From positions 1 through 64,000 of IMG/VR virus record IMGVR_UViG_3300021164_001199: a stretch of 64,000 bases of DNA, one strand, 5' to 3'. The DNA comes from a virus (lineage: Duplodnaviria > Caudoviricetes). The translations under genes and the position numbers were made by a program. The notes under the pieces were generated by a model that did not search any database, was not told where the DNA came from, and worked only from the letters and a program-made list of their open reading frames with translations. Positions within the stretch are counted from its first letter, which is position 1, and each line of letters starts with the position of its first letter. Of the stretch, positions 36,901 to 57,800 are shown one piece after another.

Positions 36901-39298
36901 AGAAGACATTAAAAAGATTAAAGAGATTTTTGATGAGTATGAAGATATAACTGGTATAACTAAAGCTAAAGAAGAAGCTGCAAAAAAAGCTGCTGAGGCT
37001 GCTGCTAAAAAACTAGAAGAAGAAGCTGAAGCTGCTAGAGTAGCTGCAAAAGAAAAAGCTCTTGATATATATACTCCAGAAACTAAAGCTAAACTAGTAG
37101 CAGACTATGAAAACTATCCAGAGAAAGATACTGAATCTTTTGAAGAGTATTTAGAAACACCTAGAGCAGCAGTTATAATCTATAAGGAAAAACAAAAAGA
37201 ACAACAACTAACTCCTGCTGAATTATTAGGTCAATTTATATCTGGTTTAGCTACAGATCAAGGATTAAAAATAATAGAAGCTAGTTTACTCAAATCAGGT
37301 AAATTTATTATTTCTAATATATCTAGAGCTACTTCAGAACAAAGACAAAAAATAGATTCAGATATAGAAAAACTTAGAAATAAATATACTGAAAAGAATA
37401 TTGTAACTAGAATAGAAAATGGTAATCTTATTATTGAAGTAGATATAAGACCAACACCTATTAATATAAATGAACCAACTCCAAAAACATTTCAAGAATT
37501 AAAAAGTGAAATAGAAAGACTAAGAGCAGAAGAAGAAACTAAGTATGCTGCTATGTCTGATCCTAATGATGCAGTAGCAAGAGCTAAAATTTATGAGGAG
37601 TATAATGTTTTAATAACTCCTTTAATAAAAGAAGCAGAAGCAGACATAAAAGCAAGAAAAGAAAAAGATATAAATTCAATATCAACAGATCCTATTAAGG
37701 AACCTTCTGAGTATAATGCTTATATATCTAAAATCAATGATATATATAATGCAGAACTAGAATCTTTAAAGAAAAAAGAAACACCACAAACTAAAGTACA
37801 ATCTTCTACAATAGAAGGTCAAGTAGGTACTTCTAATTATACTGTAGAAGAAGGATTAATCTTTTATGAAAATGAAGATGGATCTAGAAGACCAGTAGCT
37901 AATCCTGATGGTAGACCTATTTTAGATGTTATTAAATCTGATATAGAAAATAGAAGAAATGAAGAGTTAACAAAATATGATGAAGGAAAATTAACTAATA
38001 CTGAAATAAAAGTTAATAATTATAAAGCTTATATACATTCAACCCCAACAAATGTTATTTTAAAAATAGGAGATAGATATGGAGAAATAATTTTTGAAGG
38101 TTCTGGTATTTATGGGTATAATCTTGAAAAACTTATAAATGCAGAAACAGGGAATACTATAGAGCAACAGCATAATGGAAGAGATGTAATACAATCTAAA
38201 TATAATGAAGAACTAACTGCTTTAGAATCTGAACAACCTAAAAAAGAAGAGCCTGAAGTAAAAGAAGCATTTCCTTTATCTCCACAGTTTGAAGGTAAGA
38301 TAATTTACTTCTCTCCAGGTTTAGGAAAAACTACATTAGTAAATCAGTATCCAGATCAGTTTGTAGATATGGATGTATTACTATATGAAGAATTTAAAGA
38401 TGAACCTGGATTTGAAGATGCAACACCAGAAACTTTTGGTACAGCTATTTCTGCAATTTATAAAAATTTAAAAATTACTGGACAACCTGCTGAGGCATTT
38501 AATGTAATTAAAAATAAACTTTATGATAATGCATTTAAAAAAGCTAAAGAATTAACTAAGCAAGGTAAAACAGTATTAACAGGATCTGGTGCCTTTATTT
38601 CTAAAGCTGATTTTAGTGTAAAAGCTAATGATGAAAAAATATCTAAGGAACAGTTACTGAATAAAAATCCAAATATGGATGAAATAGATCTTTCAGAAGC
38701 TTTAAGTGGTATAAGAAGAAATGAAAATAGAAACAATATATTATTATCTGTTGATAAAGATTCATTCATTCAATTCTTAATGGGTAACTACGATATTCTT
38801 AAATATATCAATGAAGATATAACATTTAAACAACTTGATGAATTAGGTAAATTTATGATGGCTCCATTATCTCCAGAAGTTATGGAAGCTTTTAGTAAAA
38901 AAATGGAATATTTTCAAGCTAGAGAATTATTATTTAGTAGCTTGCAGCCTGGTGACACAGTCATTATATATAATGAAAAAACTGGTAAAAATTATACAAC
39001 TAAAATAATGAATAAAAAAGATGCAAATAGTTATAATTTAGAAATTGTACCTGATGGAAGTTCATATCTAATGCGTAGTAATCTTCCCAACTTAATAAAT
39101 GTCATACCAACACAAGGTACTAGTGAAGGTATTAAAATAGATGAAGTAGATAACTCAGATGCTGAAGATAATAAAACAAAAGTAAATGATGTTGCTACAG
39201 AAACAGAAAGATTAAAAGCTTTATTAAATGAATCATTCAATGATGATGATTTATTTGAAGATGCTGAAGACCCTAATAATTGTAAAATTAAAAAGTAA
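33932..39298 (+). CDS. Giant virion/ejection protein (1788 aa) with a Gly/Ala-rich membrane-like segment and a degenerate P-loop domain
   Basis: Hydrophobic stretch GIIGELIAEEMILGLAGLAGAPETGGASLGAAGYLMAV. IIYFSPGLGKTTL...FVDMD at about 38300-38374. Single Cys at aa 1784. Confidence 0.55.
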   Translation: MEDIFKDSNTVITPELNDFYSNSFLVKGNPADENVLPAPQVGGDNDDKANVRSLINKLNNISDLSKNNISNLQATYTDPLKDAKMFAFNPTYKGLNWDRYKSHSAFNELGFDPFRDNEKFYNDNTSIYSDITRGIQGFGKITASAFMNTAADLPRLLTGNWDPNTEAAKETERIMAETMSTRGTFGSSVINFGINAGFTVGIIGELIAEEMILGLAGLAGAPETGGASLGAAGYLMAVRAGLAGSKIAGLGKTTGALLKTIKNLDNAVDAKKYFNQFGRGAAEFLNPLQATTDLAKNFKNLNGLGQTARAAKSFGAFFKDIRDINRSFSEAKLEGGFVQNAMFEKLLNEAYANGKTPTPEEIDKIKEASLHAGYVNQMVNFPVIHYTNNIAFGNLVKPLNRLIGSTEDSIKILNKTITADITRKKVFQELAGGWKESLKRGFNPKLMAKNSLNYFSANLAEGLQESFQEASAIAIEDYYTKQFINENSIVRNQYELSILDSYGKGIGEQFSAQGAETFLSGFLMGGLMGRGGKIARKIGTGLNESSNKVKDLFYSKTDPEKYKEIKEKREIAKAEKEAKIKKYDEFRTNLINSLNDFYEDAGKMFSRDLAHMSAQEILDAKAKQAQETGDDKFLIDFTDASLFESVSNALYFGKFDLYLEHLDKIKSLDDQGLMEAMGIDDAQAGRQRLEVSIERAKEIKSRSKKFSENPYKYNDYKEGTDEYNEMVLMHNAFEDAKQSAIFTPYQFDRVLSRMNSIAESFSSIDLVANGNATEFLHLFGVDNILNEVEILDNEIQSLKDGTRENEALARRKEKQIKDLAEVRDAIIAHRAYFKALKETDTVDTSYEKNLKNAFIKYLGSYGENKSRILKSDKLDDAFKLFHDYYRLNIDAEYLSKSVAIVADPDFLRQESLRRYNALKKQYTNRKELIKKKWDTYLRKIGLNGVFQKLYEAGFAGDPEQMVAYNLSGGKTPVNLFYRISDFSRVTAADVEDIKKIKEIFDEYEDITGITKAKEEAAKKAAEAAAKKLEEEAEAARVAAKEKALDIYTPETKAKLVADYENYPEKDTESFEEYLETPRAAVIIYKEKQKEQQLTPAELLGQFISGLATDQGLKIIEASLLKSGKFIISNISRATSEQRQKIDSDIEKLRNKYTEKNIVTRIENGNLIIEVDIRPTPININEPTPKTFQELKSEIERLRAEEETKYAAMSDPNDAVARAKIYEEYNVLITPLIKEAEADIKARKEKDINSISTDPIKEPSEYNAYISKINDIYNAELESLKKKETPQTKVQSSTIEGQVGTSNYTVEEGLIFYENEDGSRRPVANPDGRPILDVIKSDIENRRNEELTKYDEGKLTNTEIKVNNYKAYIHSTPTNVILKIGDRYGEIIFEGSGIYGYNLEKLINAETGNTIEQQHNGRDVIQSKYNEELTALESEQPKKEEPEVKEAFPLSPQFEGKIIYFSPGLGKTTLVNQYPDQFVDMDVLLYEEFKDEPGFEDATPETFGTAISAIYKNLKITGQPAEAFNVIKNKLYDNAFKKAKELTKQGKTVLTGSGAFISKADFSVKANDEKISKEQLLNKNPNMDEIDLSEALSGIRRNENRNNILLSVDKDSFIQFLMGNYDILKYINEDITFKQLDELGKFMMAPLSPEVMEAFSKKMEYFQARELLFSSLQPGDTVIIYNEKTGKNYTTKIMNKKDANSYNLEIVPDGSSYLMRSNLPNLINVIPTQGTSEGIKIDEVDNSDAEDNKTKVNDVATETERLKALLNESFNDDDLFEDAEDPNNCKIKK

Positions 39299-42200
39299 TG
39301 GCTTGTCTTACACAAAAACAATTAGATAACATATTTAAATCAATTGGTAATTATTTTAAAAATTTAAATGATCCAAAAGATTATAATCACTTAGAACATC
39401 TATTATATATTTATAATAAAGGTATATCTAGTGGAATGACACCAGCAACAGCTCTATCATATGTGCAAGCTGTACCTAAACTAGTTCAAGCATATAAAGC
39501 TATAACTGGAATTAAATTAATTAAAGATGAAAATATTCAAGTAGCAAGACTTGAGTCTGATTTTGAAGATAATGATTTAAATTTTATTGCAGATACTTTA
39601 GAATTAACTAGTGAAAAAGAACCTGAAGAAATTACTGAAGTAACAACAGATGAGGTAGTTGCACCTAAAGGTCAAACATTAAAAATATTTACTGCTAAGA
39701 CAAATGATCCAACTTCTACTACTGGTCCTGATGAAAGAAAGGATGATGGTACTCAAAGTATAGATCCTAAGAAAACTTGGTACCACGGATTTACACGTAA
39801 ACTTATTGCTAATGCTGTAAGTGGATTTGATGGTTCTACTATAACAATTAAAAATCATACTGGCTTTAAACTTAAAGCTATCAAAATGTCTGAGATTCCT
39901 TATGAGGAATTATATGATTTTCTAAAAACTCAAAGTTTATCTGAAGAGCAATTAAAAGCAATATTAGATAGAGACCAGATTGTAGCATTAGTAATTACTG
40001 ATAATAATGGTAAAATATTAAAGTTTAATCAAGATTATGCAGTTGCACCTGATGGAAAGTTAATATACTTTCAAATGAGAGATACTAACTATGATTTACT
40101 AGATGTTGTAGGAGCAAGAGGTGTAATTCAAAGTGTTGAAGAAATATCTAGTAATTTAAATATATCTTATAAAGAAGCAGAAAGAAGAGTTAGAGAAGGT
40201 GTAAATAATTTAAGAGCAATCCAGAAAGGAGTATTTGAAAATAAAAATGTAATACTTGATATTACTGGAGGCAGTCGTGGCTACTTACCTTTACTAGAAA
40301 AAAATATTAAACTGAATTATCAAACTGCTCCATCTACATTAGGTCAAGTAGTTGCTAATATGGATTACTTTGAAATTAGTTACAATACTACTGGTGGAAC
40401 AACTAATAGATTTATTACTCTATATGGTAATACGATTAATTTATTTACACGTAAGGCAAATGATGAAGAATTAAGTCTATTTAGTGATGCTGTTGTAGAA
40501 AACTTATTAAATTCTGATGATACTACTGTAGGTTTAGAATTCTTAAGTCAGTATTTAGCAATGACTAATTCTAATAAGAATGAACTTAGAAAATTACTTG
40601 AAAGTATTAAAGAATCAAGAGATAAAGAAAATGGTGTAGATAGATTAAAAAAATATTTAAAAACAGCAGGTTCTAATAAGAATGGTTTTTGGTTAACATA
40701 CCAAAAAGAATTACCTGAATATTTTGGTATTAAGAATGGAGAACTTGCTATTATCAATAGAGAAGAGTATTATAATTTTTGGAAAGATGTTTTAAAAACA
40801 GCTTTACCATTAAATGATGATGATAAAGTACAATTGTTTAATTCATATTTAAATTTTGAAATTGATAATAAAACTAAAGAAACTTTAGGATTAAGTAAAT
40901 CTGAAGAACCTAAAATAGAAAAGAAAACTAGTGCTATTGTAGCAAATACAAATTTTGACATAGATTCTTTAATGAAAGAAAAAGGAATATCTTCTGAAGC
41001 TACAAAGAAACAAATTCAAGATGCTTTAGATTGGTATGAAAATAGTCCTTTAAAAAATGTAGTACCTGTTAATGTACTTTTTAATGTTTTAAATTCAAAT
41101 TCAAAAGCTGTTTGGGAAAGATCAGGAATTACTTTATTTTTTGGTTCTAACTACACAGATTTATATCATGAGGCTTGGCATGCTTTCTCTCAATTGTTTT
41201 TAACAATAGATGACAAACAAAAGTTATATGCTGAAATTGGAAAAATGTCTGGAACATTTGCTTTACCAGGTGGTGGTAGAATTAAATATTCAGATGCAAA
41301 ACCAGTTCAAATAGAAGAGTTATTAGCTGAAGACTTTAGACAATATAGATTATCTAATGGTACAAAAGTATTTGGGCAAAGACCAGTGACTAATAGAATC
41401 TTTTCTCAAATTTTAAAGTTATTAAATTGGTTATTTGATAAAGTTTCATATCAACAAACACAAACAGATTTTAATTCATTAAAGAATGTAAAAACATTAT
41501 ATGATAAATTATATCTAGGTAACTTCATAGATATGAAACCTGATGCTAAAAATATCATGTTTGGTTCATTAGCATCTCCTATAGGTTCAGTAGAAAATGG
41601 TACTCAATTAACTATTACTCAATCAAATGAAATAGCAGATACAATGGATGCTATTATATCTGATGTATTAGAAAATATTGCAAAAGAAACTGGTAAAGTT
41701 ATTATTGGTAACTTTTTAAATTCTAAGAATTCAATTAAATATGTTTATGGTAAAATAAAAGAAGCTTTTGAAAAAAGAGTAGTTGAATTAAGTGAAGATG
41801 TAGTAGCCAATGAGTATGCTATAAACTTATTAAATATTGCTATAACTGACTTTGGAAATATAGATGATACAATAGATAACAAGAAATTAAATGATAGCAC
41901 AACTATATCGTATCACCTTAGAAGATCTAAGATATTAGATTTTAAAACTAAAACTTTAGATGATAATGATGAAAAAACTGTTGACTTAGATACACATATT
42001 AAAAAAGAATTAGCTGATAATGGTGAACTATCTTTTGAAGAACTAGCAAATGAAAGAGTATTATTTCTTATTAAAACATTAAAACAATATGATTCTAATG
42101 GTAATGTAGAAATGAATGACTTAGGCTTTCCTAAACTTGTTAAATTCAACAAAGTATTAGGAATTCTAATTAGAGAACTTAATAATAACTCAGGGCCTAA

Positions 42201-45200
42201 ATCTATTAAAGCTAAACTAGAAGCATTGAGAGATAATGGTCAACATGAAATTGGTGAACTATTAATTAAACTAGGTGATTTAGATTTAGTAAAAGAAGAT
42301 GATAAAGCAGATATCATGAATGCTTGGATCTTATTTGCTAATAGTTTTAATACAACATCACTACCATTAATTATTACAAGATTAGAACAAACTACAAATA
42401 GAGATGAAAATACATTTGAATATTCTTTATATAACACTCAAGGTAAATTAGATTTATCAAATACTAAAAGAAAGTTTATTCAAGAGTTTTCTATAAATAG
42501 ATTAAATAGATTCACTTCAGAATTTGAAGGATTAAAAGTTATTGATAAAAATAAACTAGAGAACTTCAATATACAAGAATATAATAACTTACAATTTGGA
42601 GATCCTAAAAAATTCAATAAGGCTGTATTATTCTATAATGCTATTGGTATTCCAGTAGGTAAATCTGAACAATACAAAGAATTACTAAGTAATAAAACTG
42701 TATTAGAAGGAGTAACTTATATCTATAACATGCTTATGGAATATAAGAGTAAAGGAAAGAATAGTGACTTTATTCCAGATCATATAAACTATTTAACTAA
42801 ATCAAAAGAAGGTAATCAGTCTAATGTAATTGATACAGTTATCCAAGCATATCTTAAAGTAGAAGATATAGTTAGTACATTTAGTTTACTAAATGCTGAA
42901 GGTAATAGGCAATATGAGAATGTTCTTAATAATACAATTACTATTACAAAGAATGGACTTAATGATGTAAATACATTTCAGGAATTTTATAGTAAACCTG
43001 AGTTTGCACATTTTAATCCTGCAATAAATCCAATGGTTAGAAACTCTCAAGTATTAAAAAAATTATTTGGAGAAGATTTAACTGGTAGAATAGATACCTT
43101 AAACTTAAGTAATTACTCTGGTATACAGTTAGATAAAGATGGTGTGAATATAAACTCAGTTTCTATTACAGAAACAGATACAGCTACAAAATTTTACATT
43201 GATTTATATTCTTATATCAATAATGGTTATGTGGAACTACCAAGACATGCTGATAAGAAAATGGCATTAGCATATCATACTTCTAAAAATCCACATTTTA
43301 TTACACCTACTTCATATTATCAAAGTCCTGAGTTATCAGATGACAAGTTTTTTAAAATCATGTTTGGTTATTTAAAAGCAGAGCATGAAAGAGTTCAGGA
43401 TATTAGAAACAATACTATTAGTGATTTAGATTATTTTCCAGAGTTTAAAAATCAAGGAAAAGAGTTCTTGATATTCCATGACATCTTAACTCCTGAATTA
43501 AAAAATAAACTATATGATACTTCTATAGAAGAATTAGCTGCCTTAAATTCTGATACTCAATTACATAAAGAAATTAAAGATAGAATAGTAGCATACTTAT
43601 CAAATCTAACTTCTAAAAATAAAGTTGTATTTGATGAAATGAATTATTTAGATGCTGACTCAATTAAAAAATTAATTAAACCAGGGTTTGTTAATCAAGG
43701 ATTGAGTAATGACGAAAAAGCAAATAGACTAGTTAGAGCTTATAGTGCTAACTCATTCATATCATTTGTAGAATCTACCATATTATTCTATGGTGACATA
43801 GCTGCATATAACTTATTAAAAGAAGAATTTCATAAACGTAATGCTTCTGCAGGTTCTACAGGTAGAACATTTATTAGTGATCCTGAATTTCTATATGCAT
43901 ATAAAAAACATTTTGGTAATAAGTATGCTAACAAACAAGGATATAAATCTTATGGTGTTGCAGATAATGGTGTTTTAAGAACAGCTGTATTTGATGATAT
44001 ACAAGTGCAAAATGATGATTTAATAAAAGAATATAAAATACTATTTGAAAAACAATATACTAAAGATTATACAGCATTTGGATTAACTGGTAAAGCTTTA
44101 ACAGATAAAGTAGAAGCAGAAGTAAAAAAATCAATTGCTAAATATTTTGAAAAAGAAATTAAAGAAGGTGATGGTCAAGGTTGGTTAACTTTTGATGCTT
44201 ATAGAATGCTGGCAAAGCTTTCTAATGAGTGGTCTCCAGCTCAAGAGGAACTATACAATAAAATTGTAGAAGGTAAAGATATAGGTATAAATGAGATAGT
44301 TAAAAACTTTCCTCCTAGGAAATATCAATACTATGGTCCAATTGTAACAGAAAAGTATCATTTAAATGCTCTTCATAAGTTTTCATTAATGCCACTTATA
44401 CCTAGTGTTATTAAGGATACAAATCTTGCACAGATACATGAAAGAATGATGAACAGTAATGTTCAATATGCTACATTTAAATCTGGTTCCAAAACTGCTA
44501 CAAGAACATATGAAAATGGAAAATCTGATCAATTTTATACAGATTTATCAGTTAGAAAAGCAATGCCTAAAGATGCTGCATTATTAATTAATGAGATCAA
44601 TATTAAATATTTACGTAATCAAGTATCTATTAATGATGAATTCAAAGAAGAAGTAGTATTCTCTACTCAAATGAGAAAATTAATCATTAATGAGTTATTT
44701 GAAAAAGGTATTCCATTAAATGCTAATGTAGAAGAACTAGTAAAATCTTACTTAAGAAATATTGAAAGATATATTGAATTTAATAAACAAGAGTTAAGAG
44801 ATGAAATAGAACTTAAAAGTGATGGTAAGTTTAATGCAGAATCTTTAGCTAAGATTATTAAAATTGAAATGTCTAGAAGAGATTTTCCTGAACACTTGCA
44901 AGATACTGTAACTAAAATTGAAAATGGAAATTTTGCTTATGACTTATCCTATGCATTAAATGCTGAAGACATTGAAAAGATTTTATTCTCAATTGTAAAT
45001 AAAAGAATTGTAAGAAGAAAAGTAAATGGTGAACCATTAATTCAAGCTGCTGTATCTGGTTTTGAAAGTGAAAGACCTGACTTAACTAATGCTACTGAAG
45101 AAGACTTAGTTAAATATAGAGCTGATGAACTTAAATTCTATAGAGTAGATCCAGTAACTGGTAAAACATTACCAATGCAAGTTAAAATTGCATTACAAGG

Positions 45201-48200
45201 AAAGTTTAAAAAACTATTATATTTAGAACATAATGGTCAAGTAATTGGGACTAGAGATAATTTAAATAAAGCATTAAAAGATTCTGAATGGATGAAAGTA
45301 CATGGTAAAATGGTTACCCTTGTGGGTGTACGTATTCCAGTTCAAGGATTTAATTCAATGGAAATGATGGAAGTTGCAGAATTCTTAGATGAATCTGCAG
45401 GTAACATTGTAGTTGCTCCAACACAGATTGTATCTAAATCAGGTGGTGACTTTGATATTGATAAGTTATCTATATTCTTTCCTAATATTGAAAAAGTTGG
45501 TAATAAAATATTCTTATCAAGATATGATAGATCAATCAAAGAATCAACAGGTGAATTAAAAGGTAAAATTTCTGATTTAAAGAAAAGAATAAAAGAAATT
45601 AAAGGTGATTCACAAAAAGAATTTGAAAATCTTAAGAAACAAAAACAATTTAGTAAACTTGAAAATACTGAAAAACAGTTAATTAATCAATTGTATGAAA
45701 ACTACAATAGACTACTTGCAGAGAACAATAATTTAATAGAACTTTGGTCAAAAGAATCTGCTAATACTAGAAAAGGTAAAATTTTATCTAATGAAATTGA
45801 TGAACTAAAAAATATTTCTATTTCATTTGAAGATAAATTCCAAGAGTTAACTTTAGCAGAAGCTGAATTAAAACAAAATTTAAAAGTATACTATGGTGCC
45901 TTTTATGAAGATAAGCAACAAAAATTCTGGGATACTCAAGATGTAAAATTACAAGTTGTATTTGATGAAATGAATATCATTAAGGAGAAATTAATTAATT
46001 CTTCTAATAGTGCATATGAAAATGATATTACTCAAGACATTATAAATATTCTTTCAGCTCCTGAAATTGCTGCAGCATTAGTTAGACCTAATGATACTGA
46101 CTTAGTACAGCCATTATCTAAAGACATGCTTAAGTATTTTGCTAAGTCATATAATCCAAAAGAAAATTTTAATACAGATCCTTCAATAATGGAATTTGTT
46201 GATGATCTAGAAACTAATCCTGAAAAGAAAAATAAAATAAGACCTGTATCACCTACTAGAATATTTGAAACAAGATATAATATTTATAAACAATACTCTA
46301 ACTCAGTTGGTAAAAGAGCTTTAGGTATAGGTGCCGTAGATAATGCTTATAATGCACTATTCAATCAAGTTGGTTTGTACCTAAATGATGAATATGAACA
46401 TGTCAGAACTGATAAAAAAACAGGTAAGGATATAACTCAAATAAGAAAGAATAGATTACTATTAAGTCATAACAAAATGAATAATGGTAAAATATCTTTA
46501 TCTAATATATTCAATACAGAAGGAACTAAAATATCTGATTTAATTAATCAGTTGATCAATGGTTGGGTAGATGTTGCTAAAGATCCTTGGATTGCTTATG
46601 TAATGGGTACTCCTGAAGCATCACCATCTTTATTATACTTAGTACAAGCTGGTGTACCATTTAAACAAGCTGTATACTTCCTAGCTAATCCATTAGTAAG
46701 ACAATACTTTGATACTCTTAAGAAAATGGAAAGCCCATTAGCTGCTTTAAGTCAATCAATTGAGGAAAATGATTATGGTGATCCTATAATAAAATCTAAA
46801 TTACCTGAAAATGAATTTAGACTTAAAGCTGAAATGTTAGGTTATGGTAAATCAGATTATCCAAATGGTCATCAGTTATATGATAGGATTCAAGACTATA
46901 CAAAAGGATTTGAAAATATAACAGAAAAAGAACTATTTGATAGATTAGAGGCTAGTATACAACCAGGTTGGTCACGTAATGAAACAGACATGGCTGTATT
47001 AGCGCACTTCATAGAAATACTTGATGTAGCAAAAGGACTATTTAAAATTAAATCATCTCTAAACTTTGATACTAAGACATCTGCTACAATGTATGATGCT
47101 TATGCAAGAAGTCAAAAAAGAGATTTAATTGTTAGTGATAATGAAGATGAGGTAAATATTCTTAAGATATTTCCAAAGCATAAGTTAAAAGCATTATATG
47201 AAGATACTATTCTTCACAACTTTGATGTGAGTGACATGCAAATGGAAATGTTTAAAGATTTATATGGTGTTAGAAATAATCCTAATTTAAATAAATATTT
47301 ATACGAATTCTATAAGAATAGTTTAATATTTGGAAGTAATATATTTGATAGAGTAAAACAAATTTTTGGTGGAAATGATAAAATGATTTCTGAATTCAAA
47401 AATGATTTTACTACAGCTATTACTTTATCTGCTCTAAGAGATATTGGTGTTACAGAAACTATGTACAAAGGATATGAAGTTGTACAAGTTAATAGTAAAG
47501 AATATGAAAAAGTTATAAATAAAAAAGTAAATAAATCTTTACCTACTGATAAATTATATTTTGCTAAAAATAATTATACTAAAGATACTCCAGAGAAATA
47601 TCCAAAGTATGGTTTTATTTTTACTGAGAATGCAGAAAAACTAGGTACTAATTATAATGTATCAACAACTCAAGCAGTTATTAGAACTAATAAAAAAGGA
47701 GAAAGAAATCCTAATGCATTAGCTATTGTAACTAAGAAAATGCAGAAAGCTGGGGCTAACTTTACAAATTCTGAAGCAGATTTTAATCAGTTTAAAGAAC
47801 TTAATACTAAGTTGATTAATGACATAGTTGATTCTAAGTTTGAAAGAATTATAGTTCCTACTGGTGGATTTGCAATGGAAAAAGCACAACTACCTACAAG
47901 GTTTGCAGAATGGTTACAGAATGAATTGCAAACTAAATTAGGTATTGCTACAGAATTAGTTGATAGAGGAACTGGAATGAGTGGCTTAACTAACTCTAAA
48001 AAATATGAAGAACCTACTACTCAACAATCTACCAATCCACTAGTAGAAGCAGGAATTAAACCTACTGATATGTATGGTAATGCTGCTAAAGATATCCAGA
48101 TGGCATCTGAATCTACTCAGTTTATTGGATTTGGTACTATAATGAAAGAAGGTAATGTATCTTCTACAGATAAATATGCTAAAGCTTGGGGTAACAAAGC

Positions 48201-51200
48201 TAATACTGGAGAATATACTGCTAATGATATAATTATGGTATCTGGTAGTGGTAACTTTGGTAGAGGTGGTGTGGATAAAACAGAAGAAGCAGCAGCAATT
48301 AAAAAAACATTATCTGAAAAATATAAACCTTTATTATTAAAAGCTATAGAAGCTGGTGCCTCTTTTAGAATTGGTAACCAATATGCTAAAGGTAATTTAT
48401 CTGATGAAACTGTTGCTAAATTTTTACAACAAAAAGGATATACTGAAGAAAAACTTAATGGATATTCTAGATGGAATGCTCCTGTTAAACCAAAGGGAGA
48501 AAAAGTTGCGGATGGTATATATGTAAATCAAGAAGGTTTATCACCACAAGAAGAACTTGAATTATTTGAACTTATTAGACCAGTACTAGAAGAACAAGCT
48601 GTTAAAAGTAATGCAGGTAAGAATGCTCCAAAAATGGCAGGTCTAGGTCTTAACTGGGATTATGTTAATGGAGTGACTAAAAGAAGAGATAATGGATTTG
48701 AAAAAATTGATATACAAGATCCTTTAAGAAAGAATAGTGCATATGGGTGGTTTACATCTTCATCTACTGGTGAGAAATTAGGTTCTATATCTAAAAGAAT
48801 GGTAGAGTTAATGAGTAAAGCTACTGGTATAGATGTTACTGATTATGATGGTTCTATTATAAATATTTATAATTCAGATAGTTTTATTGGTAATCATCCT
48901 GATATTGATGAAAGTAAAACAGCAGAAAAATATCCTGTTGTTGTTGTTAATATAGGAGGTCCAGGAAATATTGTATTAGGTAGTGATAAGGTAAATTTAA
49001 AATCAGGAGCAGGTTATGTATTTGGTGTTGATGGTAAAAATAGAACCATATCTCATTCTACTTACGCATCACCTATTAAAGGTACATTACCAGCTATAAC
49101 TACTGCTATGGATGGTGAAACATTAAAAGCTGGTTCTTATAGAGTTTCAATTACAATGAGAAGAGTCATGCCTTTAAAGAAAGGAATGCCTGAATCTCCA
49201 AAAGTTATTTCTAAAAAACCATCTACTAGTGCTAATGAATTTGATATAGCAGATAAATTAACACCTATAGAACAAAACTTTAAAGATGGTTCAGGTGGTA
49301 GACAAATGCAACCACAGTTTAAAGGTAAATCTACTATGGATCTTATTATGTCAGGAGATAGAACTAGAACTACTAGAGCTAAGACTGATGTTGGAAGAAT
49401 GTTGAAAGACTATAACCTTTCTAAAATTGAAGATCTTGTTGGTAAAATTATACGCATGACAGATAATACAGGTAAACAAGTCTATACTAGAATTACTAAA
49501 GTTGCTCCATTTACACAAGAATATCAAGATTCTACATGGAAAAAAGAAGGCTGGGAAAAGTCTGTAACAGATAAACTTGTTGGACAGTATCCTTATGCTA
49601 TAGAGTTTGAAGTAGTAAATAAACCTACTCAATCATCTACTAGTACTAATATTGGACCAGAAACTATAATTAATGTATATTCTAAAGATAAAAATGGATT
49701 TGAAGATTTGAGCAATTTTGCTGAAAGATCTGTTAAGCTTGGTAATGAAACTTTTAGAACTCCTGAAGGTGCTTATCAAGCTATGAAAATTTGGTTTACA
49801 AATGCTGCTTTATTACGTACACCTATTAGTAAAGAAAATCTTGAAATATTAGAAAAATTAAAAACAGCTTCAGGTCTAGAAGCAAAAGCTTTAGGAAATA
49901 ATATTACAGATTTATCTAAAGACACCTGGGATAGAGATTCATCAGGTGTAATGAAAAATATTTTAACACTTTCATTTCAACAAAATTCTAAAGCTTTAGA
50001 TAAACTTCTTTCTACTGGTAATGCTACTCTAACTCATACTCAAGATAAAACTAAGTGGAAAACTGAATTTCCTAAATTATTAATGGAAGTTAGAAATGAA
50101 CTTAGAGGTGAACAACCTAAAGTTAATGAGCCAGTTGAAGTAGAACAAGTTCCCACTAAGGGAACTAATATACCAGGATATATTCCTACAGGAGTATTTA
50201 TTCAAGATGATAAAATGTATGTTGATAAAGATACATTATATGAACAATTTGAAACTCAAGAATATTCTACCAATAATACACAAGCATATGGAACTATTAT
50301 AACAACTCCTGAAGGTGGTAAATTCTATTTACAAAAAGTAAGTCCAAGGACTTTCAATGATAACTTTAGTGAGTATGTAAAGTTTGTAATGGAAAGAGAA
50401 TATCAGAGAAGTGTATTAAAAGCTTCAGACATAACCAATTTTGATGAACTACTTAAAACAACTACTGCTAAATTAATAACTCCTAAAAAAGTACAAATTA
50501 ATATTGCTGAATTACAAAATAAACTTAAAACAGATGTGGCATTTGTAGGTAATAAATATGGACTAGAAGATTTAGTAGACGTATATTCTGGTGAAGTGAT
50601 TTATGATAATTTGAAGCCTGGCTTTAGAAAACCAGGAATTTATGAACAATATACAATAACTGAAGAAAGAGGGTCTGCTGTAAAATATAAAATAATTGAA
50701 AGTTATTTAACTAATAAAGCATTAAAGAATATTCTTAATTCTTATTCTTATATGCAGGATCCAGAGAATTCATATGCCAGACAATTATTAGATTTAGTAA
50801 AAAAATATAAGTTAGCAAAAGACTATAGTCTTCTTGATGCATTGACACTTAATAAGTCTAATGGTAATGACATCTTTAATTTAGTATTTAAAGAAGGTAA
50901 ACCTGATTCTAATACTATAGATAACTATATTGATGAATTAATGAGACTATCTAATCCTGATGTTGAAAAACATCCAGATATACATATTAATAAAGAGATT
51001 TCTGAATTCTTTGATAAATTTCAATATTATGTATTGTTATCTAGTGGATTTAGTTCAGGTAACAAATATTCATTAAATTCTATTATATCTCAAGAAAAGA
51101 TATTAAACTATACTAATTCAGATGCAATTAAAAAAGCAACTAATAGAATTTTAAATGATTCAGATTATTATGGTAAAGTTGAAAAAACTTTAAATATTTT

Positions 51201-51861
51201 TACTGATAAGTTTTTAAGACATAGGTTAGGTATTATTGTAAATCCAAGATCTAAAATAGTTACTAATATTGCAGGATTTTCAATTGATAATTCTAATAGA
51301 ATTAAAAAGTATATATCTCAAGGTATATCTAAACCTGTAACAGAATATCCTAATGTAGATATTTTTGATGATACTCTGAAAAAAGTAAATGATTCATTAT
51401 ATTTAATTGATCTAGATTTAATAAGACAACAAGGAAATCAAGCTGCTTTATCTGGTGATAAAAAATATTTTACTAATGCAGTTTTAAAATTAGCTGAGAC
51501 ACATGATGATAAATTGTTTATTTTTACAGCAGCTGATCAAATTCCAGTAACTGTTAAAGCAAGTAATATATCAATCTTTAATACACCAGAACAAATTAGA
51601 AATGCTGAATTTGAAGGACCTATTATTTTATCAAGCAAAGGATTAAAAGGAAAAACTGATGTTGGAACTGCTATGTTATCTGAAGCACTATTTGAAAAAT
51701 ATAGAATTAAAAATCCTGGATTTCAAAAAGGAATTGCCAAACTTACTATTCGTGAAATGATGAATAGTGACTCTTTTATAACATCAATAGATGTAATTGA
51801 TAGTATTAGATTAAAATCTCATGCTATATTAGACGAATTAAATAACTCTTGTAATATATAA
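39298..51861 (+). CDS. Single-chain virion RNA polymerase (two-barrel, crAss/phi14:2 gp66-like), 4187 aa, with an N-terminal zincin and inserted accessory domains
   Basis: Catalytic GGDFDIDK (DFDID at 45448-45462), RIPVQG (45331), DGQG (44170), KFSLMPL, GKRALGIGA and VDVAKDP. Zincin HEAWH (41167-41181) with EELLAEDF. AlkB, ASCH and NADAR motifs at about 48490-50110. Confidence 0.9.
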   Translation: MACLTQKQLDNIFKSIGNYFKNLNDPKDYNHLEHLLYIYNKGISSGMTPATALSYVQAVPKLVQAYKAITGIKLIKDENIQVARLESDFEDNDLNFIADTLELTSEKEPEEITEVTTDEVVAPKGQTLKIFTAKTNDPTSTTGPDERKDDGTQSIDPKKTWYHGFTRKLIANAVSGFDGSTITIKNHTGFKLKAIKMSEIPYEELYDFLKTQSLSEEQLKAILDRDQIVALVITDNNGKILKFNQDYAVAPDGKLIYFQMRDTNYDLLDVVGARGVIQSVEEISSNLNISYKEAERRVREGVNNLRAIQKGVFENKNVILDITGGSRGYLPLLEKNIKLNYQTAPSTLGQVVANMDYFEISYNTTGGTTNRFITLYGNTINLFTRKANDEELSLFSDAVVENLLNSDDTTVGLEFLSQYLAMTNSNKNELRKLLESIKESRDKENGVDRLKKYLKTAGSNKNGFWLTYQKELPEYFGIKNGELAIINREEYYNFWKDVLKTALPLNDDDKVQLFNSYLNFEIDNKTKETLGLSKSEEPKIEKKTSAIVANTNFDIDSLMKEKGISSEATKKQIQDALDWYENSPLKNVVPVNVLFNVLNSNSKAVWERSGITLFFGSNYTDLYHEAWHAFSQLFLTIDDKQKLYAEIGKMSGTFALPGGGRIKYSDAKPVQIEELLAEDFRQYRLSNGTKVFGQRPVTNRIFSQILKLLNWLFDKVSYQQTQTDFNSLKNVKTLYDKLYLGNFIDMKPDAKNIMFGSLASPIGSVENGTQLTITQSNEIADTMDAIISDVLENIAKETGKVIIGNFLNSKNSIKYVYGKIKEAFEKRVVELSEDVVANEYAINLLNIAITDFGNIDDTIDNKKLNDSTTISYHLRRSKILDFKTKTLDDNDEKTVDLDTHIKKELADNGELSFEELANERVLFLIKTLKQYDSNGNVEMNDLGFPKLVKFNKVLGILIRELNNNSGPKSIKAKLEALRDNGQHEIGELLIKLGDLDLVKEDDKADIMNAWILFANSFNTTSLPLIITRLEQTTNRDENTFEYSLYNTQGKLDLSNTKRKFIQEFSINRLNRFTSEFEGLKVIDKNKLENFNIQEYNNLQFGDPKKFNKAVLFYNAIGIPVGKSEQYKELLSNKTVLEGVTYIYNMLMEYKSKGKNSDFIPDHINYLTKSKEGNQSNVIDTVIQAYLKVEDIVSTFSLLNAEGNRQYENVLNNTITITKNGLNDVNTFQEFYSKPEFAHFNPAINPMVRNSQVLKKLFGEDLTGRIDTLNLSNYSGIQLDKDGVNINSVSITETDTATKFYIDLYSYINNGYVELPRHADKKMALAYHTSKNPHFITPTSYYQSPELSDDKFFKIMFGYLKAEHERVQDIRNNTISDLDYFPEFKNQGKEFLIFHDILTPELKNKLYDTSIEELAALNSDTQLHKEIKDRIVAYLSNLTSKNKVVFDEMNYLDADSIKKLIKPGFVNQGLSNDEKANRLVRAYSANSFISFVESTILFYGDIAAYNLLKEEFHKRNASAGSTGRTFISDPEFLYAYKKHFGNKYANKQGYKSYGVADNGVLRTAVFDDIQVQNDDLIKEYKILFEKQYTKDYTAFGLTGKALTDKVEAEVKKSIAKYFEKEIKEGDGQGWLTFDAYRMLAKLSNEWSPAQEELYNKIVEGKDIGINEIVKNFPPRKYQYYGPIVTEKYHLNALHKFSLMPLIPSVIKDTNLAQIHERMMNSNVQYATFKSGSKTATRTYENGKSDQFYTDLSVRKAMPKDAALLINEINIKYLRNQVSINDEFKEEVVFSTQMRKLIINELFEKGIPLNANVEELVKSYLRNIERYIEFNKQELRDEIELKSDGKFNAESLAKIIKIEMSRRDFPEHLQDTVTKIENGNFAYDLSYALNAEDIEKILFSIVNKRIVRRKVNGEPLIQAAVSGFESERPDLTNATEEDLVKYRADELKFYRVDPVTGKTLPMQVKIALQGKFKKLLYLEHNGQVIGTRDNLNKALKDSEWMKVHGKMVTLVGVRIPVQGFNSMEMMEVAEFLDESAGNIVVAPTQIVSKSGGDFDIDKLSIFFPNIEKVGNKIFLSRYDRSIKESTGELKGKISDLKKRIKEIKGDSQKEFENLKKQKQFSKLENTEKQLINQLYENYNRLLAENNNLIELWSKESANTRKGKILSNEIDELKNISISFEDKFQELTLAEAELKQNLKVYYGAFYEDKQQKFWDTQDVKLQVVFDEMNIIKEKLINSSNSAYENDITQDIINILSAPEIAAALVRPNDTDLVQPLSKDMLKYFAKSYNPKENFNTDPSIMEFVDDLETNPEKKNKIRPVSPTRIFETRYNIYKQYSNSVGKRALGIGAVDNAYNALFNQVGLYLNDEYEHVRTDKKTGKDITQIRKNRLLLSHNKMNNGKISLSNIFNTEGTKISDLINQLINGWVDVAKDPWIAYVMGTPEASPSLLYLVQAGVPFKQAVYFLANPLVRQYFDTLKKMESPLAALSQSIEENDYGDPIIKSKLPENEFRLKAEMLGYGKSDYPNGHQLYDRIQDYTKGFENITEKELFDRLEASIQPGWSRNETDMAVLAHFIEILDVAKGLFKIKSSLNFDTKTSATMYDAYARSQKRDLIVSDNEDEVNILKIFPKHKLKALYEDTILHNFDVSDMQMEMFKDLYGVRNNPNLNKYLYEFYKNSLIFGSNIFDRVKQIFGGNDKMISEFKNDFTTAITLSALRDIGVTETMYKGYEVVQVNSKEYEKVINKKVNKSLPTDKLYFAKNNYTKDTPEKYPKYGFIFTENAEKLGTNYNVSTTQAVIRTNKKGERNPNALAIVTKKMQKAGANFTNSEADFNQFKELNTKLINDIVDSKFERIIVPTGGFAMEKAQLPTRFAEWLQNELQTKLGIATELVDRGTGMSGLTNSKKYEEPTTQQSTNPLVEAGIKPTDMYGNAAKDIQMASESTQFIGFGTIMKEGNVSSTDKYAKAWGNKANTGEYTANDIIMVSGSGNFGRGGVDKTEEAAAIKKTLSEKYKPLLLKAIEAGASFRIGNQYAKGNLSDETVAKFLQQKGYTEEKLNGYSRWNAPVKPKGEKVADGIYVNQEGLSPQEELELFELIRPVLEEQAVKSNAGKNAPKMAGLGLNWDYVNGVTKRRDNGFEKIDIQDPLRKNSAYGWFTSSSTGEKLGSISKRMVELMSKATGIDVTDYDGSIINIYNSDSFIGNHPDIDESKTAEKYPVVVVNIGGPGNIVLGSDKVNLKSGAGYVFGVDGKNRTISHSTYASPIKGTLPAITTAMDGETLKAGSYRVSITMRRVMPLKKGMPESPKVISKKPSTSANEFDIADKLTPIEQNFKDGSGGRQMQPQFKGKSTMDLIMSGDRTRTTRAKTDVGRMLKDYNLSKIEDLVGKIIRMTDNTGKQVYTRITKVAPFTQEYQDSTWKKEGWEKSVTDKLVGQYPYAIEFEVVNKPTQSSTSTNIGPETIINVYSKDKNGFEDLSNFAERSVKLGNETFRTPEGAYQAMKIWFTNAALLRTPISKENLEILEKLKTASGLEAKALGNNITDLSKDTWDRDSSGVMKNILTLSFQQNSKALDKLLSTGNATLTHTQDKTKWKTEFPKLLMEVRNELRGEQPKVNEPVEVEQVPTKGTNIPGYIPTGVFIQDDKMYVDKDTLYEQFETQEYSTNNTQAYGTIITTPEGGKFYLQKVSPRTFNDNFSEYVKFVMEREYQRSVLKASDITNFDELLKTTTAKLITPKKVQINIAELQNKLKTDVAFVGNKYGLEDLVDVYSGEVIYDNLKPGFRKPGIYEQYTITEERGSAVKYKIIESYLTNKALKNILNSYSYMQDPENSYARQLLDLVKKYKLAKDYSLLDALTLNKSNGNDIFNLVFKEGKPDSNTIDNYIDELMRLSNPDVEKHPDIHINKEISEFFDKFQYYVLLSSGFSSGNKYSLNSIISQEKILNYTNSDAIKKATNRILNDSDYYGKVEKTLNIFTDKFLRHRLGIIVNPRSKIVTNIAGFSIDNSNRIKKYISQGISKPVTEYPNVDIFDDTLKKVNDSLYLIDLDLIRQQGNQAALSGDKKYFTNAVLKLAETHDDKLFIFTAADQIPVTVKASNISIFNTPEQIRNAEFEGPIILSSKGLKGKTDVGTAMLSEALFEKYRIKNPGFQKGIAKLTIREMMNSDSFITSIDVIDSIRLKSHAILDELNNSCNI

Positions 51862-51863
51862 TT

Positions 51864-54800
51864 ATGGCTTGCAAAATAATTAGAAATGAAGATGGTACTG
51901 TAGATAGAGTACTTGCTGATAATAATGAACGTTCAATTCTCTATAATCAAATTAGAGAAACAACAACTGAAGAACAAGCCTTATTAGATTATTCTGGAAC
52001 GTTTACAGAAGAGTTTAAAAATGTAATTGAATCATTTAAAAACTCAGAAGATAGTACTAACATATATGATGAGAATGGAGAAGTCCAGTATTACATATAT
52101 GATTATATTATGCATCCTGAAAAGTTCTTTGGTCAAAATAATGTAGTTAATACTAAATTTCAAAAAGATAGAAATAATAATTTAAGAATTGCTGGATTAT
52201 CTTATTTAGTAGGCACTTTAGAAATGCTTTCTGTGAAATTTGGATTATCTTATGAAGTTATTTTTGATGAAAGTAATCCTAACAAAGGATATATAGATGT
52301 AATATCTTATGGTAAACCCACTATTATAATAAATGCTTCTAAAGCTTCACATGACACTCCTTTACATGAGTATGGTCATATTTTTATAAATCTTATTAAA
52401 TTATCCAATAAAAACTTATATTCAAATTTAGTAAAAGAAATATTAAATACAGAAATAGGTAAAAAAGAATTATCCGATGTTAAAAATTATTATTCAAATT
52501 ATACTTTAGAAGAACAAATTGAAGAAACAATAGTTGAACTATTAGGCAGATATGCTAGAAATGAGTTTGATCCTGAATCAGGTATACATAAAACAATTAA
52601 AAAAATATGGAATACTATATTAGAATTTTTATCTAAGACATTCAATGTTGAAATTAAAGATATTTCTCCAAACATGTCAATTGAACAACTTTCTAAACTT
52701 TTAAGTAATCCTAATGTAAACTTTAATCAAAAATCTTTCATAGAACAAAATTTAGAAACTATTAAGAATACTAACATTAAAAATAAAGAAAGATTAGAAA
52801 ATGAATATACCGATTTTAAAAAGATTAATAATCCATCATTAATAAGAGAAAATGGTTATACGTTAATTATAAACAAAAATGAGTTTGATATATTTAAAAA
52901 GGAAATAGAAACTACCATCAATAGTATAAAAGAATATAGTAAAAGTCAACTATTAATAGATATTAATAATATTAAATCTGAAATTACAACTTTTCAAGAA
53001 AGAAACAATTTTGATTACAGTAGATATCCTATGTTTACTAAAATTTTAAAATTTTTTCATCCAACTCCAAACACTGCATTATATGTATTAGATAGAGAAA
53101 TACAAAATGGAAATTTAGATAATGAAATTAAAGATAATTTAAAATTTTTAGATAAATCACTAACTGAAATAACACAAGATGTATTATCTGGATATATGAT
53201 AAGTGATCAATTAGGAATAAAAATTCCAGATTTTTATAAAATGTCATCTTATACATTTAGCAGTTTTAATTCTGTTGAAGAAATTGAAAATAGTTTTATA
53301 GATAAACTTTCTGAATTGAATAAAATAATTCAAAATCCTGAAAAATCTGACTCTTATTATGATCGTAGTTTTAAATTTTCAACAGAAACTGATACATATA
53401 AAGTATATGGAAAATTTAAAGATGGAAATATAAGTATTAGTTTTAGTTCTGATAAGTATGGAATGAAAGATGTGAATAATAGTCTTTTTTTCAAAATTCT
53501 TCCTAAAGTTATAGATTCAATTTCTTATATGTTTTCAGATTTAGAATATAACACTATATCATTTACTCCCGTTTCTGGAGAATCATCTAAAGGTAGAGAT
53601 TTAAGGCTTAAAGGATATAATATTTTTGCTAAAAGACTTTTTGGACAATTTAGTTTAGTAGCAGAAAATGATAATACTACTATTATTCCTATTCCTGAAA
53701 TGTTTAAAAATCAAATACATATAAAAGAAAATATGTATCAGAAAGACAGGACTGATATACCTGTTATACAATCAGCCCAGTTTAATCAAATACAAAATGA
53801 TACTAATGAAAATATTGCAGTTGAAGTATTAAATAAAATTGCAAATAGAATATCTAAAAATCTAAATGGGGTGCCTTATAATAGTATTGAAGAAGCTGAT
53901 GCTGTATCTTTGTTAGCTTCTACTAAAGAGAAATATACTGGTCAACCAGCATTCTTTTATAATGGTCAAGTATACTTTATAAAAGATAAATTAAACTTAG
54001 AAAACTTATTCCATGAATTTAGTCACCCTTTCATTAAGGCTATTAAGAAAACAAACCCTGGTCTTTTTAATAAATTATATGACAATCTTATTCAAACAGA
54101 AGAAGGTCAAAAACTTAAAGATCTAGTTAAAGAATATTATAACCATGATGAAAATTCTGAAGAGTTTAAAGAAGAAATGCTAGTAAGAGCATTAACTACT
54201 AGAGCTAGAAATAATGAATTAAAAGTTCAAGAGAGTTCTGGTTTTGATAAGTTAATGAATCAATTGTGGTATGCTGTTAAACAAATAATACGTAAGATAT
54301 TTGGTAAGGTTAAAATAGACAAGTTAAATGAGAATACAACTCTAGATGAACTTGTAAAAATGCTTAATAATGAATCTTTTGAAATTAGTGCAAAAGATAT
54401 TACAGATTCAGAAAGAGCAGATTTTAATAATCTAAAAAAAGAGTCAGTTAAAGAACTAATATCTAAAGCTAATGCTACATTAGTTCAAAGTAATATTGAC
54501 AAATTATTTAAATTAATAAGGTCTGGTCAACAAGTTTTAGAACAAGGTGAAACAAACTATCCTGGCTTAGAAGAAAGTATTTCAAAAGAAAAATTAGATA
54601 GTCCTTTTCAAGAAGAATACAATGCAATATCTAGATATCAAACATATACTAAAACTAATGAAGAACCTTTAGATTTAGTAAACTATAGAGAAAAACAAAT
54701 TGAAGGTTTAGTTTTATCTATAGAAGCTTATAATGACTCTATTGAAAAAATAATTCTTGAAATTAATAGATTAAAATCAGATCCCAATTCAATTGTAACT

Positions 54801-57800
54801 ATTTCTAAAAATATGTATTTCTTGAAAATACTTAAACAAACTTTACAAACGTTTGTGGAATTAAGACAAGAAATGACAGATGCAGGAGTTAATGTAGCTA
54901 GTCCCATATTTCAATTACTAACTAAAGCAACTATTAATGCTGAATCTGGTATTAGAATAATATATGAAGAAAATAAGAAAGCATTACCTTTAGTATTAGC
55001 ACCACATTTAAAAGGAATCAATGAAGTACTTATTAAAGAATTTAATAAAGTAATTGAGGAAATGGTTGCTAGAGGTTCATCTCGTGAAGCAATTGCTGCT
55101 AAGGAAAGAGAAAGAGATAGTTATCTTAGAGATGAGAATACATTAGCTAAAGTAATGGTTGGTGAAACACCAGAGCCAGCAGGATTAGGTTTAAGTACTT
55201 TAGTTGAAAGTGCTGTATCTAGTCCAGATGAATTAATATCAAGTTTTGCGTTATATGTTAAGGAAGCTTTAATTGATGTAGAACTTAATGCTACTGCAAA
55301 CTTTAATGATTTCTTAGCTGATACTAGAAAACTTTTAAAAGACGCAGGATTAGATGATTTTAAATTAGTATCCAAACTTGGTAAGATTATTACTTTTAAA
55401 GAAGAACTAGGATATACTGACCCTAAAACAGGAGAATTCAAAACTCATGAAGTTCATACATTTTTAAATAAATTTAAAGGATATGAATTAGTATTATCTA
55501 AATTTAAATATGATATAAATAAAGCATTAGAGAATGGTGATTCAGAATTAGCGGCATCTCTTGAAATGGACCGTGAGGAATGGAAAAGAACATATATGCA
55601 TGATAAATGGAAACCTGAAGTTTATAAAATATATGATGTCTTCAAAAAAACTTATGTTAACTCTGCAGGAGTTACTGTTGAAATTGGCAAAATGGCCAAA
55701 GAAAGATATAATAAAATAATGGATAATATCAATAATGGTATTAAACTCATTGATGATGAATTAGAGAGAGTTGAAATTCAGAATAGAATGAAAATTGATA
55801 CTCTATGGGTAGATTATAAAAAATTATTTAGTAAATATGATGATGATGGTCTTCTCAAAACAGGAGATGAAATGGCTATTACAGAAACATTACTAGAATA
55901 TAGAGCTCAAAGAAAGGAATATTTTGAATGGGAGTCAGATGAAAGTCCTGATAGTATGCCTATTCTTAGATTTAAGAAAGCTAGAAGTTTATTTATAGAT
56001 CAACTATTAACTAAGTTTGAGAGATCTGATCTAGAATTTGCTCAGAAGTTACAAGAGTGGGATGATATGAATACTAGAAAGGTTATTGATAAACAATTCT
56101 ATGTAGATAAAGCCTTAATACTTGAAAAAATAAATGAAATATATAATAGTTTATCAGGTTCTTTTGCAGAAGATTCTAAAATTGTAAAAGAAACTAAAGA
56201 GTATTGGGATTTAATTATTAATCAACTGTATGCTTACAGAGATGAGGAAAATCATCCTAATGGACTTTTAGTTTCTAAAGAAAAAATAGCTGAGATTAAA
56301 AAAGCTCAAGAAAAAATCCAGGAACTACAAGACATGATTAAAAATGGAAATGGTTTATCTAGAGCAGAAACAAGAGAATATAGAAGATTAGATGAATTAG
56401 TAAAACGTGGAATTGAGTTATCTGCAAAAGACTATTCTGACTATGAAAATTTAGAAATTAGATCTAATTTTTCTTCAATACCAAAAGGAGTTAAAAGTGA
56501 TTTAAAGAAATTATATGCTGATCTTGAAAATTTACAAAGTAAAAAAGCTACTGATTATTATTTAGAAGTTTATAATTATCAGATTGACTTACATAATCGT
56601 AGACAAGAAGCAAAAGGATTACCTGTTACAGTGAAACATTTTGATAGATTTGCTATTGATTATGATGCATTAGATAGAGGGTTTGTAGAGAGTGTATTTA
56701 AAAAAGATCCAGAGTTTAAAAAATGGTTCATGGCTAATCACGTTGAAGTAGAAAGATGGGATGATGAACTTCAAATGAGAGTAATAAGATTTGAAAGATT
56801 ATTCTTATGGAATCAAATTGAACCTAGAGACTCTAAATATAAAAAAAGAGTTCAATGGAGAGATGAAACAGGTAGAGATATATTTGTATGGGGATTACCT
56901 TCTTTATCATATTACAAACAAAATATTAAACCAGAATATGCTACTGAAGAAATTGTAGGAGAAACTGTAGATAATAGAGGTAACTATTTGCCAAGAGAAA
57001 ATGTAGTTAATAGTCCTTATATTAATCAAGCATATTTTGATTTAAAAAGAGATAATATAGGTGCATTTAACTTACTTGAAAAAATTAAAGAGTATCATAT
57101 TAAGTTTCAAGAAAAAGCTGATAAATCTGATAGATTATGGATGCAAGTTCCTAGATATGAAAAGACTAGTAAAGAACTTACAGAAACTAATAAGTTTTTT
57201 TCTGATAAAACTTCAACTGCTAAAGCTGCACTTAAGAATTTTTTAAATAAATTTAAAGTAAATGCTGAAGATACTGATGAAGGTTTAGGTGTTGAAGATA
57301 AATTTAAACTTACAAGATTAGACTTCTTTAATGATGATGAACAAAAAATTCATATATCAGGTAAACCATTAATAGATGAAGATCAAGTATCATTAGATGT
57401 AATTACATCTGTGCTTAGACATATGCATTCAGTTGAGAGAGCTCATAAATTAGCTGAGATTGAACCAATTGCAAAAGCATTAATGGAATTAATGAATGAT
57501 CCTAAAAATCAACCTAAAGATATTACTAAAGCTAGTATGTATCATTGGATTACTCAAAAGATACCAATATTTGCTAATAAAAAAGGTGAGAATATTAGAG
57601 CTAAGGCAATTAAAGGATTAATAGACAGAACTTTCTATAATGTTCAGCAAACAGGATTTGGTTCTGATGCTATAGTTCTACAGAAATTATCTAAAGTAAT
57701 GATGAAAGCTGCATCTTTTGGATTCTTTGCCTTAGATATACCTTCAGCTGTTAAAAATAGATTTGGTCAACAGTTACAACAAGCTATTGAATTAGCTGCT

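Follow-up and report, generated by a model that had tools for sequence, protein, structure and literature searches.

The RNA polymerase (RNAP) block of Cellulophaga phage phi14:2 is the closest described counterpart of the gene considered here. In that phage, gp66 (with gp65 and gp67) is a two-barrel RNAP with the motif DFDID, a zincin is found in the same block, and gp66 is packaged in the virion and translocated (10.1101/2020.03.07.982082). Three RNAP-block proteins are present in crAss001 virions (PMC10172136), and fused polyproteins are known in some phages. We analyzed a stretch of 64,000 nucleotides (the window; positions 1 to 64,000 of the Caudoviricetes record IMGVR_UViG_3300021164_001199) from a 94-kb virus record that is ~79% complete, and identified one open reading frame (ORF) of 4187 amino acids (aa) that encodes a homologous RNAP. 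The gp66 protein has 2180 aa and no accessory enzyme cassette has been described for it, whereas the protein encoded here carries ~880 aa of swappable modules after the RNAP core (Table 1). Each module behaves as a whole unit in gain, loss and exchange, and this includes exchange between proteins with RNAP cores that are <40% identical. They are mobile cassettes with a joint at the DNA level, a point that was missed by an initial annotation made from the letters of the sequence.

Injected polymerases fused to other enzymes have a precedent. Polyvalent proteins, including the N4-type virion RNAP-metallopeptidase fusions, are like the protein described here in combining an injected RNAP, a zincin metallopeptidase and variable effectors (Iyer et al., 2017; PMC5512222), and the 4187-aa ORF has the features of this group (a large multidomain phage protein with a zincin metallopeptidase and a variable set of effector domains). 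However, the RNAP of the polyvalent N4 fusions is of N4/T7 type and that found here is of the crAss two-barrel type, and the paper makes no mention of NADAR, AlkB, ASCH, SLOG or a linker (PMC5512222). In gut crAss-like phages, NADAR, SLOG-like and DUF7831 domains already appear, as annotation labels only, within giant RNAP-block genes; for example, RefSeq Crassvirales RNAP-block genes (cr126_1 gp003, cr130_1 gp79) are labelled DUF1768 (NADAR) or DprA-like. In the literature on crAss RNAP with NADAR, AlkB or SLOG, we found no paper on cassettes, their exchange or a DNA joint. As the idea of effectors on a virion RNAP is known from polyvalent proteins, the advance lies in the crAss-specific pool of modules and in their exchange at the level of DNA.

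The core of the ORF matches phi14:2 gp66 (tblastn, E 4e-16) and also 83 phage records, mostly from crAss-like phages. Because of this homology and the DFDID motif (DFD[IV]D in the gp66 family), we identify the gene as a crAss-type virion RNAP. The initial annotation had called it a virion RNAP, and its quoted motifs were all found at the positions it gave and in one frame of the ORF. Delivery of the 4187-aa protein along with the phage DNA is plausible by homology to packaged or ejected relatives. Packaging and ejection are most likely, judging from these homologues and from the position of the gene, which ends the structural gene block.

The limits of the insertion are set by the relative P0004 (core 81% identical), in which both scaffold flanks are joined directly, without any module. 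The insertion sits in a loop of a conserved C-terminal scaffold, ~570 aa of which follow the cassette. Thus, the modules do lie downstream of the RNAP core, as annotated, but they are an insert in a loop and not a tail. Most of 120 homologues carry nothing at this site. Among close relatives we found modules a and b (L006), a, another insert, c and e (L005), and a to d (P0002); further relatives carry a, b, c, an insert of unassigned family and d (P0006), or a and an unassigned insert (P0001, P0003 and P0005). Since relatives gain or lose each domain as a unit, the five domains are separate, as had been proposed, and the variable domain content expected among related polymerases is strongly confirmed, from an empty site to varied fillings. 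We counted 50 architectures among 129 giant proteins, with modules either N- or C-terminal to the RNAP core. Other members of the pool are ART-PolyVal, cpYpsA SLOG, SF1 helicase and kinase/zeta-toxin-like P-loop domains. The inserts of unassigned family at the same site (P0001 aa 2905-3165, P0003 aa 2917-3178, P0005 aa 2761-2877, P0006 aa 3146-3256 and P0010 aa 2629-2782) are candidate new injected effectors.

Table 1. Features of the virion RNAP gene and its inserted modules (window coordinates).
Feature	Position	Strand	Basis or remark
crAss-type virion RNAP polyprotein, 4187 aa (zincin, two-barrel RNAP, inserted cassette, C-terminal scaffold)	39298..51861	+	Single ORF
Zincin-like metallopeptidase motif HExxH, aa 624-628	41167..41181	+	No change at H, E or H in alignment A2
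RNAP catalytic motif DFDID, aa 2051-2055	45448..45462	+	Motif common to phi14:2 gp66
Whole hypervariable insertion, ~880 aa	47512..50157	+	Site empty in P0004
Module a: DUF7831, possibly divergent macro fold	47545..47997	+	Pfam; AlphaFold2 model
Joint word before module b, degenerate, 6 mismatches to 21-mer	48019..48039	+	
Module b: alpha/beta domain without family assignment	48040..48477	+	Model; hhalign
Module c: AlkB-type 2-oxoglutarate-Fe(II) dioxygenase; H3200-x-D3202, H3253, R3282/R3288	48508..49191	+	Profile; motif conservation
Joint word on the module c side of module d; differs from the 21-mer at 4 positions, with the YCATCTACTAG core unchanged	49213..49233	+	
Module d: ASCH-like domain, Arg3355 in place of YqfB Lys21	49228..49614	+	YqfB profile match
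Joint word on the module e side of module d; differs from the 21-mer at 2 positions	49627..49647	+	
Module e: phage-type NADAR; E3490, K3497, H3580	49660..50106	+	Pfam; YbiA match; conserved residues

The modules move between distantly related polymerases. In 31 of 32 IMG/VR loci with homologues of b, c or d, the module is part of an ORF with a DFDID-type RNAP motif or scaffold homology, and in these 31 loci modules occur on both the N- and the C-terminal side of the core. Module b is 87-90% identical between RNAPs whose cores share ~35-38%, and module d is 82-84% identical where the cores share ~27-32%. DNA identity of 83-87% breaks off at the module edges. The NADAR module (e) differs from that of L005 by one base change in 146 codons, with a synonymous divergence (dS) of 0, whereas the scaffold flanks have dS of 0.33-0.82. 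Thus, we conclude that this module was transferred very recently. The ratio of non-synonymous to synonymous divergence (dN/dS) for modules is 0.07-0.45, which shows that purifying selection acts on them.

A joint word stands at many of the module edges. In loci fetched by protein similarity, Q[PS]STSV linkers are written with identical codons in 15 of 15 cases. The 21-nucleotide word ACTCAAYCATCTACTAGTGTT has 81 exact matches in 63 viral stretches of IMG/VR and no match in 596 Gb of GTDB prokaryote genomes. All 81 are read in the frame TQ[PS]STSV, 79 of them in ORFs of at least 300 aa. Within the sequence fragments available, 36 of the 63 word-bearing ORFs are recognizably RNAP-like. Homologues of the cargo genes next to it (window 51864-59021 and 33932-39298; found in L075, L083 and L046) account for a few, so the cassette habit extends beyond the RNAP gene. 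When the pattern was widened to A or T at each of five silent positions, a 32-fold larger set of words, the IMG/VR search added only seven matches; five of these differ by a single base and lie in genes of the same type. Exact matches therefore make up 81 of 88, compared with the ~3% expected from codon usage alone. Conservation fades 2-3 nucleotides outside the word, which is sharply bounded and has a central ACTAGT palindrome.

Joints are placed at module boundaries: 41 of 54 lie within 25 aa of a recognized module edge (5.9 expected) and none of the 54 lies inside a module (6.9 expected), in counts that are not independent and take in related contigs. Within the 94-kb genome there are exactly two copies of the core YCATCTACTAG, at 49219 and 49633, which bracket module d; L005 is without module d and its junction falls inside these flanking words. 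The C/T variant of the word is uniform within a genome (all C in L011, all T in L013). A repeat finder applied to the cassette gave only repeats at chance level, the joint being too short and degenerate for this method.

Module e matches Pfam NADAR above the cut-off (E 4e-11) and aligns with YbiA (phmmer), and so the initial assignment holds. E3490 and K3497 correspond to the catalytic E88 and K95 of DarG1 and to E36 and K43 of T4 AdfN. H3580 is at the position in the last strand where phage NADARs carry His, and homologues in the family keep this residue; in ungapped register it falls on a Glu of YbiA, although the phmmer alignment itself opens a gap of one residue there. Module e is therefore confirmed as a NADAR of the phage (gp30.3) subtype with intact catalytic residues and predicted activity. 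T4 gp30.3 (AdfN) is similar in its catalytic Glu and Lys, in the phage-type His and in having no evident DarG1-type N-terminal extension (PMC11257639, PMC11125620). It differs in being a stand-alone gene, whereas module e is fused into a virion RNAP. The T4 protein counters DarTG1 (PMC11257639). It removes ADP-ribose (ADPr) from guanine in vitro, but in the absence of infection it failed to rescue cells from DarT1 toxicity (PMC11125620, PMC11257639), so a DarT1 rescue assay could give a false negative.

Module c matches Pfam 2OG-FeII_Oxy_2 below the cut-off (E 1.3e-5), and the best match to this family among related RNAPs has an E value of 2.4e-17. The HxD motif is invariant in 27 of 27 homologues, and the distal His and Arg are kept in nearly all. 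These results support the earlier assignment to AlkB-like 2-oxoglutarate-Fe(II) dioxygenases, with intact catalytic residues and a candidate activity on m1A/m3C.

For module d, annotated as an ASCH/PUA domain, we did not identify a Pfam ASCH match, either in the module or in a Pfam ASCH search of the phage's own genome. Nevertheless, a profile of 43 family members matches E. coli YqfB over the full length (pairwise E 1e-5). The hhalign score of 24.3 exceeds the maximum of 15.4 in 30 shuffles, with a probability of only 26%, and the ESM Atlas gave a weak ASCH lead. It is only the full-length match to YqfB that supports an ASCH-like fold. The equivalents of YqfB T24, R26 and E74 are retained, but the position of Lys21 (in the GxKxxT/ExR octapeptide) is Arg, with one exception, in every family member whose sequence reaches it. 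Lys21 is essential in the ASCH N4-acetylcytidine (ac4C) amidohydrolases; thus, YqfB-like hydrolysis of N4-acetylcytidine by this module is not supported.

Module a matches Pfam DUF7831, which occurs mostly in giant proteins. An AlphaFold2 model (pLDDT 90.6) is most similar to the DarG macrodomain (Z 4.4, root-mean-square deviation 4.2, 111 residues aligned), and macrodomains make up about 20 of the top 50 rows in the fold comparison. Foldseek with the same model gave no match. A GGG loop is seen in some homologues and is missing from the copy here. The comparison suggests at best a divergent macro fold; the macrodomain first proposed at this position is unproven, with a weak likeness to DarG in its favour.

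The model of module b is confident and of alpha/beta type (pLDDT 86), but generic Rossmannoid folds were its only matches (Z at most 5.4). The module has no Pfam SLOG match, fold searches gave no specific SLOG match, Pfam cpYpsA and YAcAr searches of the phage's own genome were empty, and an ESM Atlas search gave no usable match. PDB sequence searches with profiles of modules a, b and d also found nothing. The SLOG identity suggested earlier for module b is thus unconfirmed. By hhalign (93.9%), we did find homology between module b and another family of crAss inserts, which has a SLOG-like GD.PGVD motif. The order of motifs in module b may be that of a circularly permuted SLOG domain, and such a permutation could hide a match. 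The insert at the module b position in L005 looks YspA/cpYpsA-like by motif, yet also has no Pfam match; module b did not align to this family. Overall, the specific enzymatic activities appear less well founded than first proposed.

We consider it probable, with some reserve, that the gene encodes a polyvalent-type cargo RNAP whose loops are filled from a domain pool shared by crAss-like phages, by exchange at the joint, and whose modules function after injection. The crAss-type scaffold would tolerate in-frame inserts at a few loops, and these would be filled from a pool of small nucleotide- or nucleic acid-processing domains common to crAss-like phages. In the simplest model, the in-frame word, which also encodes a flexible linker, would be a common crossover point. 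Phage single-strand annealing protein (SSAP) systems can recombine short homologies, and the source genome encodes both a Sak4-like SSAP and an exonuclease VIII-like nuclease, which may splice modules in frame at the word during co-infection. Two effects would hold the word constant: more frequent exchange of those copies that match the pool, and homogenization of copies. The polyprotein would be packaged and ejected with the DNA, either intact or cut by its own zincin. Within minutes of the start of infection, the NADAR module, perhaps together with modules a and b, may remove ADPr marks or ADPr-derived signals that host defences produce. The AlkB module may undo alkylation or other modification of bases, and the ASCH-like domain may bind modified nucleic acid or have a substrate that is not ac4C. 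It has been proposed that NADAR, Macro and SLOG domains of viruses are packaged in virions and counter ADPr-based immunity (PMC9503650). Fast turnover of modules would then mirror changing host defences.

Several observations weigh against this interpretation. Two of the five modules (a and b) lack a firm family, and the joint counts take in related contigs. The b/c and e/scaffold junctions recombine without a joint word, which is therefore not required. A spore photoproduct lyase encoded in the genome fits plain damage repair equally well, and for this reason the main rival is that the modules are general repair or housekeeping helpers (for alkylation, oxidative or UV damage in packaged DNA and early transcripts, and nucleotide clean-up) and not counter-defence enzymes. 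We think this rather unlikely. In its favour, AlkB belongs to the repair enzymes, NADARs of the YbiA type clear riboflavin intermediates, and the genome has a uracil-DNA glycosylase in addition to the lyase, but rapid gain, loss and sweeps across lineages are more typical of conflict genes. Moreover, the NADAR is of the His (gp30.3) type that is used against DarTG1, and the pool includes ART-PolyVal, cpYpsA SLOG and kinase/zeta-toxin-like P-loop domains.

The word could also be a dedicated site for a site-specific recombinase or DNA-binding factor, in an integron-like in-frame system within an essential gene. This would account for the invariance of silent sites across very distant phages, the sharp boundaries, the central palindrome and the exact loss of d between two copies. 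It is nevertheless improbable, as no tyrosine or serine recombinase is among the families listed for 35 scanned ORFs (genome ~79% complete), the conserved flanks have no attC-like hairpin, some module edges are without the word, and its C/T uniformity within a genome fits homogenization by ordinary homologous recombination. The broader proposal of a dedicated crAss in-frame cassette system in injected RNAP and cargo genes, in which a recombination factor would read the joint, unrelated phages could plug effector domains in and out, and the word would mark a large catalogue of uncharacterized injected anti-defence proteins, is doubtful, if slightly less so. It seems very improbable that the phage gains nothing from the inserts and that they are passengers it tolerates or selfish in-frame elements. 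One close relative has no module at all, and thus no module is essential, but the dN/dS values and conserved catalytic residues argue against this possibility, and the inserts show no intein or nuclease features.

Other features of the genome were noted. About 155 aa directly after the RNAP catalytic motif (window aa ~2090-2240) are absent in L006, P0005 and P0006, forming a second variable site. Many giant RNAP and cargo ORFs have a Cys within their last few residues (window 51861; L040-L102), and this terminal Cys is invariant in alignments A1 and A2. A structural-block protein of 2328 aa (window 18110-25096) has a weak match to glucosaminidase (a peptidoglycan hydrolase) at aa 753-905 (E 6e-4). 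The replication side (L103/L104, G000 59001-94062) encodes the spore photoproduct lyase, a MoxR/vWA set, an IMPDH/GMP reductase-like enzyme, a CHU_C-domain protein and the Sak4-like SSAP. The CHU_C domain gene, together with the affinity to crAss-like phages, suggests a Bacteroidota host.

The functions of the modules during infection are predicted from their families, and the inserts may form a fast-changing kit of injected tools for counter-defence or repair. Such a kit would let phages bring in finished enzymes ahead of all expression of their own genes, and it shows how enzymes can pass between distant lineages while an essential gene stays intact. The joint word can also serve as a practical handle for searches. 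Sequences that adjoin it are domain-sized, many are without an assigned family, and these inserts are strong candidates for new anti-defence or nucleic acid-modifying proteins.

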